Positions 1-458 of a DNA stretch of 458 bases are shown piece after piece. The position numbers were made by a program, and so were the translations under genes. Source of the stretch: Escherichia coli. Lineage in GTDB: Bacteria > Pseudomonadota > Gammaproteobacteria > Enterobacterales > Enterobacteriaceae. Position 1 is the first letter of the stretch. Every line of letters begins with the position of its first letter. Below the pieces are notes generated by a model that worked only from the letters and a program-made list of their open reading frames with translations, was not told where the DNA came from and made no database searches. The stretch is from NCBI RefSeq assembly GCF_003334305.1, contig NZ_QOWS01000076.1. One strand, 5' to 3'.

Positions 1-458
1 GGGTATGACGCTGCCGGGCGCATCACCGTGCTGACCAACGAGAACGGCAGCCAGTCCACGTTCCGGTATGACCCGGTCGACAGGCTGACGGAGCAGCGTG
101 GCTTTGATGGCAGGACGCAACGTTACCATTATGACTTGACCGGAAAACTCACGCAGAGTGAAGATGAGGGGCTTATCACCCTCTGGCATTACGATGCGTC
201 AGACCGTATCACCCGGCGCACGGTGAACGGCGACCCGGCGGAACAGTGGCAGTATGATGAACACGGGTGGCTAACCACCATCAGCCATACCAGTGACGGC
301 CACCGAGTGTCGGTCCACTACGGCTATGACGATAAAGGCCGCCTGACGGGCGAACGGCAGACGGTGGAGAACCCGGAGACGGGGGAGATGCTGTGGGAGC
401 ATGAGACGGGGCATGCGTACAGCGAACAGGGGCTGGCGACCCGTCAGGAGCCGGACGG
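1..458 (+). CDS. Rhs-family YD-repeat protein (polymorphic toxin shell/core region), internal fragment; partial at both 5' and 3' ends
   Basis: Frame 1 is open across the whole window (152 complete codons, no stop), while + frames 2 and 3 hit stops almost immediately (TGA at nt 32-34 and nt 6-8). The translation contains six recognisable YD-repeat units with Y-D dipeptides at codons 2-3, 23-24, 44-45, 64-65, 85-86 and 109-110, each followed by a G/D-R-L/I-T-like motif (e.g. RYDPVDRLT, RYHYDLTGKLT, WHYDASDRIT, YGYDDKGRLTG). GC is about 62% by hand count, consistent with the established GC-rich Rhs core. The paralog (rhsA/B/C/D-like) cannot be resolved from an internal core fragment, so no gene symbol is given. 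Confidence 0.92.

Follow-up and report, generated by a model that had tools for sequence, protein, structure and literature searches.

What can a piece taken from the middle of a repeat-rich Escherichia coli gene reveal about the protein to which it belongs, about the toxin that such a protein may carry, and about whether the gene is still alive? The question is raised here by a stretch of 458 nucleotides, and the term window is used throughout for that whole stretch. The full explanation, which is held with high confidence, is that the window is an internal segment of the conserved core of rhsG, that its repeats would contribute to the wall of a protein cocoon, that the tip enclosed by this cocoon would be fired by a type VI secretion system (T6SS), and that an open reading frame (ORF) downstream of the gene would be protective. 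The evidence comes from the letters of the window itself, from profile and structure-database matches, and from genomes in which the identical 458 nucleotides lie within longer annotated loci.

Frame +1 of the window is open across all 152 codons and is the sole open frame of six, the remaining five containing 2–12 stops each. The GC content is 62%, and its distribution over the three codon positions (64/45/76%) is coding-like. Among 2000 shuffled windows, frame 1 was open in 13 and at least one frame of the six was open in 205, while the analytic probability of an open frame in the window is P = 0.008. At 62% GC, an open frame by itself constitutes only modest evidence for coding; the coding and Rhs reading of the window is settled because the YD-repeat content is decisive. 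One minus-strand frame contains only 2 stops, and a minus-strand gene was considered in this frame and rejected, since no support was found there and a gene rich in GC3 would be expected to leave such a pattern on its opposite strand. Further searches of the window returned little: no Rfam match on either strand at E ≤ 1, no DNA-level tandem repeat with TRF, no inverted repeat, and no promoter-like site. The repeat search yielded only three short two-copy families of 73–86% identity; one of them stems from the GGTATGAC codons (G-Y-D). A weak terminator-like hairpin is located on the minus strand at window positions 353–339, where a 5-bp stem is followed by a T-rich tail (1 found versus 0.2 expected from shuffles); inside the ORF and antisense to it, this hairpin is probably a product of chance.

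The translated window can be parsed by motif into xYD units that begin at residues 1, 22, 43, 63, 84, and 108, with a spacing of 20–24 amino acids, and all of the units lie on the plus strand. Unit 1 (GYDAAGRITVLTNENGSQSTF; positions 1–63) is covered by the strongest of three Pfam RHS_repeat matches to the window peptide (residues 2–39, 3.5e-9), and unit 2 (RYDPVDRLTEQRGFDGRTQRY; 64–126) falls within the same Pfam match and within the match to the NCBIfam YD_repeat model TIGR01643 (5.3e-13). Unit 3 (HYDLTGKLTQSEDEGLITLW; 127–186) and unit 5 (QYDEHGWLTTISHTSDGHRVSVHY; 250–321) carry the other two RHS_repeat matches, at residues 44–74 (7.7e-4) and residues 85–119 (1.3e-5), respectively. Unit 4 (HYDASDRITRRTVNGDPAEQW; 187–249) is defined by the motif parse and by alignment to the shell hairpins of the Pseudomonas aeruginosa protein Tse5; similarly, unit 6 (GYDDKGRLTGERQTVENPETGEMLWEHETG; 322–408), which has a longer insert, is defined by the parse and by a Tse5 alignment that reaches residue 121. 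A degenerate seventh unit (HAYSEQGLATRQEPD...; 409–458) starts near residue 137 and runs past the window end; it is recognized by reading the sequence only and lies inside the alignment to the RHS_core profile. The first-pass annotation had described an uninterrupted frame-1 ORF composed of YD repeats, and this description is borne out by the 152 open codons with six clear units and the degenerate seventh.

The window as a whole (1–458, plus strand) can thus be entered as an internal rhs core ORF segment of the rhsG type, linked to a T6SS and predicted to form part of a YD-repeat beta-shell, on the basis of its open frame, its match to the NCBIfam RHS_core profile NF041261, and its 100% identity to annotated genes. 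Residues 1–152 align with profile positions 644–795 of 1261 in NF041261 (E = 1.9e-90), and the window alone scores 304 bits, a 152-residue fragment being too short for the 2000-bit equivalog cutoff. Two full proteins in which the identical window occurs reach 2554.4 and 2618.9 bits against the same cutoff and also contain TIGR03696 Rhs_assc_core (3e-23); the membership in the Rhs family that had been proposed from the letters of the window is thereby confirmed by profile search of the full protein. In a search of solved structures, the peptide from the window is enough by itself to find the Rhs shell of Tse5 (8cp6; 5.9e-29). The window belongs to the Rhs family of E. coli, and the relation goes beyond resemblance.

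The distribution of the window in the species was assessed by a megablast search of 5,426 complete E. coli genomes, in 3,708 of which it is present; 271 records match it at ≥99% identity, many of them at 100%, and these are annotated as "RHS element core protein." On E. coli replicons, 14 of the 9,837 window-matching places sit on plasmids and the rest are chromosomal. Sixteen loci with an exact (100%) match, a non-random convenience sample taken among the first 25 hits of the list and numbered here with the prefix L, were examined, and all 16 are at one chromosomal site. The genes at this site run in the order tssF/E/C/B, hcp, vgrG, rhs, a small ORF, an ISAs1-family transposase, and yafV-ivy-fadE. 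The pair hcp-vgrG stands directly 5' of rhs in 10 of 10 intact loci, and the tss genes are adjacent in every locus whose retrieved flank reaches that far. On the 1998 map, rhsG is placed at minute 5.3. Cummins et al. in 2023 (PMC10711316) gave the name rhsG to the gene that follows vgrG in a cluster of the T6SS-2 type and regarded it as a probable effector, and the rhsG/H subfamily is the grouping of Hill and colleagues, as summarized in PMC2935791. By locus and by gene order as described in PMC10711316, the window is an allele of E. coli rhsG: the species, the gene order (tss cluster, hcp, vgrG, rhs), and the kind of deletion junction between tssM and rhs are all the same, with no substantive difference between the published gene and that of the window. 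In a 2025 mSystems survey of the E. coli T6SS (PMC12282107), the terms "Rhs," "T6SS-2," and "aspV" are absent from the main text. The RhsA and RhsD systems of K-12 are likewise similar in their GC-rich YD core, variable extension, small downstream ORF, and nearby H-rpt/ISAs1 elements; however, the nucleotide identity of the window is only 73.4% to rhsA and 81.2% to rhsD, and the K-12 rhsA and rhsD loci are shown without adjacent hcp, vgrG, or tss genes, unlike the window locus. The window gene is already known, and there is no novelty in the window itself.

The anatomy of the full-length gene can be read from the intact copies. The window corresponds to residues ~645–796 of a 1,411-residue protein (L002) and to residues ~646–797 of a 1,499-residue protein (L001). 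From the N-terminus onward, the domain order comprises a short segment with a PAAR motif, DUF6531, approximately 1,100 residues of YD repeats, a DPxGx18DPxGL motif, and an AT-rich tip, followed by the small ORF. The literal string KPAARQGD occupies residues 5–12, a tetrapeptide only, as a Pfam search of residues 1–645 detected no PAAR domain; Pfam DUF6531 lies at residues 48–124, and RHS repeats follow. In L001 and L002 the core ends in DPIG-x18-DPLGL, with the boundary motifs PVQRGDPLGL and PIRYTDPLGL, and DPxGx18DPxG is the aspartyl-protease motif quoted in PMC10684867. The boundary of a further copy, L012, reads PVRFIDSLGL, in which DSxGL replaces DPxGL. It had been anticipated that the informative parts would lie downstream on the plus strand, and in intact identical-window copies the PxxxxDPxGL boundary between core and tip indeed ends 1,371–1,386 nt 3' of the window end, counted from its last full codon (nt 456). 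The first-pass annotation could not judge how far downstream to look; in identical-window genomes, the distance is ~1.4 kb from the window to the boundary and ~1.85–2.1 kb to the rhs stop codon. Along this path the GC content falls from 58–67% in the core (~64%) through 45% to 28–33% past the boundary. The tips beyond are AT-rich, variable, and 151–245 residues in length, and the small ORF comes next, so that the divergent C-terminal domain and the small downstream gene that had been predicted are both found in genomes with the identical 458 nucleotides.

Among solved structures, the closest to the full protein is Tse5 (2.1e-122), and other matches are a "Rhs family protein" (7q97), Tse15, Tre23, and a Rhs protein of Salmonella bongori. 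The likeness to Tse5 (8cp6; PMC10684867) extends to the YD repeats, the DPxGx18DPxG protease motif, and the position of DUF6531, which has the residue numbers of the Tse5 plug; the short N-terminus with its PAAR string may correspond to the comparably short PAAR-like N-terminus of Tse5, and the C-terminus would be encapsulated as it is there. In Tse5, the N-terminal plug comprises residues 48–124 and is preceded by a PAAR-like piece of ~5 kDa (PMC10684867). The differences are that Tse5 belongs to another species, bears another, pore-forming tip, and is more distant in sequence. Cocoon, encapsulation, and aspartyl-protease mechanism have been described for Tse5, RhsA, and Rhs1 (PMC10684867). 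By homology with these proteins and Tse15, the YD hairpins of the full protein, including those encoded in the window, would build the wall of a closed beta-cocoon, and a C-terminal aspartyl protease would release the tip within it. As in the solved homologues, the loaded cocoon would then sit on the spike protein VgrG, and the T6SS would shoot it into neighboring bacteria, and the product of the downstream ORF would be expected to protect sibling cells. The role of the window in this scheme is structural and non-variable.

The variable part of the system lies past the boundary. Across the 16 loci, identical windows precede four unrelated tips, with T2 in 13 loci and T1, T3, and T4 in one each; therefore, the window cannot identify the toxin. 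A tip-specific small ORF, putatively for immunity, is always present 3' of rhs, encoding 125 residues, 130 residues, a sel1-repeat protein, or dsORF-h1. T2 has 153 residues, a weak Pfam YkuD match (7.5e-5), and the motif H-x18-TMGC, and its downstream ORF of 130 residues has a lipobox-like LVIGC; orphan copies of T2 are annotated by NCBI as "L,D-transpeptidase family protein." A sequence search of the PDB with T2 returned no relative, Tlde1a included. The weak YkuD match, a His...Gly-Cys arrangement resembling the L,D-transpeptidase motif, and the lipoprotein-like partner ORF are features that T2, and only this tip, shares with the Tlde1 family of T6SS effectors (PMC9638812), from which it differs in its spacing of 18 residues versus 14–17 in HXX14-17-(S/T)HGCh, in having Met for His before Gly-Cys, and in being fused to a Rhs core rather than standing alone. 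The probable activity of T2 is that of an L,D-transpeptidase-like enzyme on peptidoglycan, with the lipoprotein-like immunity-type ORF as its partner.

The remaining tips are more varied. T1 (L001:10840-11562) forms the last 245 residues of the 1,499-residue Rhs protein and is followed by an ORF of 125 residues. Residues 24–175 of T1 align with the N-terminal portion of CdiA-CT tRNA-nuclease constructs (5j5v, 5j43, 8zyc) with E values of 1.5e-7 to 7e-7, whereas its C-terminal ~70 residues have no match in the Pfam or PDB sequence searches; this suggests that the N-terminal part may be a pre-toxin or entry segment common to CDI and Rhs toxins. T3 has 151 residues, precedes a sel1-repeat protein, and finds nothing in the PDB by sequence; Pfam gives nothing significant for either T1 or T3. 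T4 (L012:7700-8286) contains HEFVH, an HExxH motif, and is metallopeptidase-like, its only Pfam match being a weak one to Peptidase_M91 (0.0016); the protein encoded downstream is annotated as "RHS element protein dsORF-h1." Two of the immunity-type ORFs were searched against NCBIfam and match no family. When queries reaching from the window to the immunity-type ORF were applied at ≥80% coverage, three tip modules were found in 777, 340, and 216 RefSeq E. coli genomes. The suggestion that novelty would be found off-window is borne out only weakly: most of the tips linked to the window are without characterised activity, but they are common in RefSeq E. coli.

Several rival accounts of the window have to be weighed against the rhsG reading. 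YD repeats are common to several classes of protein, and the window could in principle be derived from a TcB/TcC component of a Tc toxin, a teneurin-like protein, or WapA; for instance, weak teneurin-like matches are obtained with Pfam TEN_YD-shell (0.088) and with teneurin-like proteins in the PDB (~1e-11). Nevertheless, the window is 100% identical in nucleotides to E. coli rhs genes and matches the RHS_core equivalog as given above, and the Tc protein YenC2 (4igl) matches only residues 1196–1257 of the full protein (1.7e-6). A shell of the teneurin type was rejected, as the E value for PF25023 is not significant, and the derivation from any of these classes is effectively refuted and barely conceivable. 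Tc toxins do share the YD cocoon, the C-terminal aspartyl autoprotease, and the enclosed toxic tip; the window locus, however, has no TcA partner and neighbors T6SS genes, and delivery would be by T6SS rather than through a Tc translocation channel. Because the similarity is confined to the last ~60 residues of the core, the relation to TcB/TcC is one of functional resemblance and not of family. Another account places the window in a dissociated rhs core fragment, namely a displaced core-plus-tip remnant 3' of the main rhs gene. Extra rhs material does occur beyond the main rhs and the ISAs1 element at some of the same loci (L002:13019-18138; L014, L015, and L016 from about 9500; L018:9501-11458), and it includes another copy of rhs, frameshifted and accompanied by an ORF of the YdcD family, as well as an ORF with DUF3969 and short orphan pieces of rhs beside an ankyrin-repeat ORF. 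This downstream material looks like stacked displaced tips with their own immunity-type genes, and displaced core-plus-tip fragments are expected under the C-terminal displacement model (PMC2935791), of which they are the basis. However, none of the 16 exact matches is an orphan, the frameshifted tandem second rhs of L002 is only 91% identical to the window over 378 nt, and the lone short orphan fragment seen is about 600 nt; moreover, the window is located mid-core, and over 1.3 kb separates it from the tip. An orphan origin is accordingly considered highly improbable.

A more substantial rival concerns the state of the gene rather than its identity, in that the window may come from an inactivated rhsG, either split by an insertion sequence (IS) or deprived of its N-terminus by a deletion that also took hcp, vgrG, and the greater part of the T6SS cluster, which would make it a relic without a deliverable effector. 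Six of the 16 exact-match copies are in such a state, being interrupted by an IS or cut short at the N-terminus by a deletion. In L003 and L015, rhs is interrupted by IS3 or IS3/IS30 insertions. L004 (at 5684) and L013 (at 4184) have an identical junction, in which a minus-strand tssM remnant abuts an N-terminally truncated rhs, and L008 (at 6170) has a tssM-rhs junction at another breakpoint; the two distinct breakpoints therefore imply that the T6SS cluster was lost between tssM and rhs on two or more independent occasions. In L011, hcp and vgrG are gone and rhs is N-terminally truncated. The deletion type of the three copies with tssM-rhs junctions is of an already published kind, a 21-kb deletion from rhsG to tssM being fixed in ST410-B/H24 (PMC10711316). 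Against inactivation, the window contains no stop or frameshift, and the annotation gives 10 of the 16 sampled copies as intact and full-length with hcp and vgrG upstream, a proportion that has to be read in the light of the non-random sample. The supposition that frame 1 would continue without interruption beyond the window stands for the intact copies and fails for the six broken ones, which are pseudogenes. With 6 of 16 identical copies broken, the window is no proof of a living gene, and a given copy may be non-functional; for the window itself, inactivation is a tenable though somewhat doubtful account. The assignment of the window to the core of rhsG remains the preferred reading.

At the T2 loci of this rhsG allele, a side observation was made in the immunity-type ORF. 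In L002, the 130-residue ORF (11282-11674) holds a run of eight guanines (G8) at about 11485–11492, and it lies about 2.0–2.4 kb 3' of the window. Over the 13 T2 loci, the run is G8, the in-frame form, in eight, G7 in three (L004, L011, and L018), G9 in one (L003), and G11 in one (L015), where the frame is retained with one extra Gly. In L018, G7 splits the ORF while rhs and hcp-vgrG are intact, and L004 and L013, which have a common deletion junction, differ in the length of the run. The T2 immunity-type ORF is found in 1,021 genomes; in a spread sample of 60 genomes, its match spans are 390, 392, 393, 394, and 395 nt, and 12 rows are annotated as two ORFs. The G run could be a slipped-strand switch that toggles protection against the Rhs toxin, even where the strain retains an intact toxin gene and intact hcp-vgrG, and this is regarded as unlikely; the alternative is that the variation results from homopolymer errors in sequencing or assembly, or from ordinary gene decay. 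If slippage were true, it would give a phase-variable T6SS immunity gene.

Thousands of E. coli genomes carry an annotation of the gene to which the window belongs; this gene is named in the literature, and its mechanism is understood through solved homologues. For the Rhs family, the lesson of this locus is that a fragment of the core tells nothing of its toxin: identical windows of 458 nucleotides stand in front of at least four unrelated tips, and they are found in live and dead genes alike.
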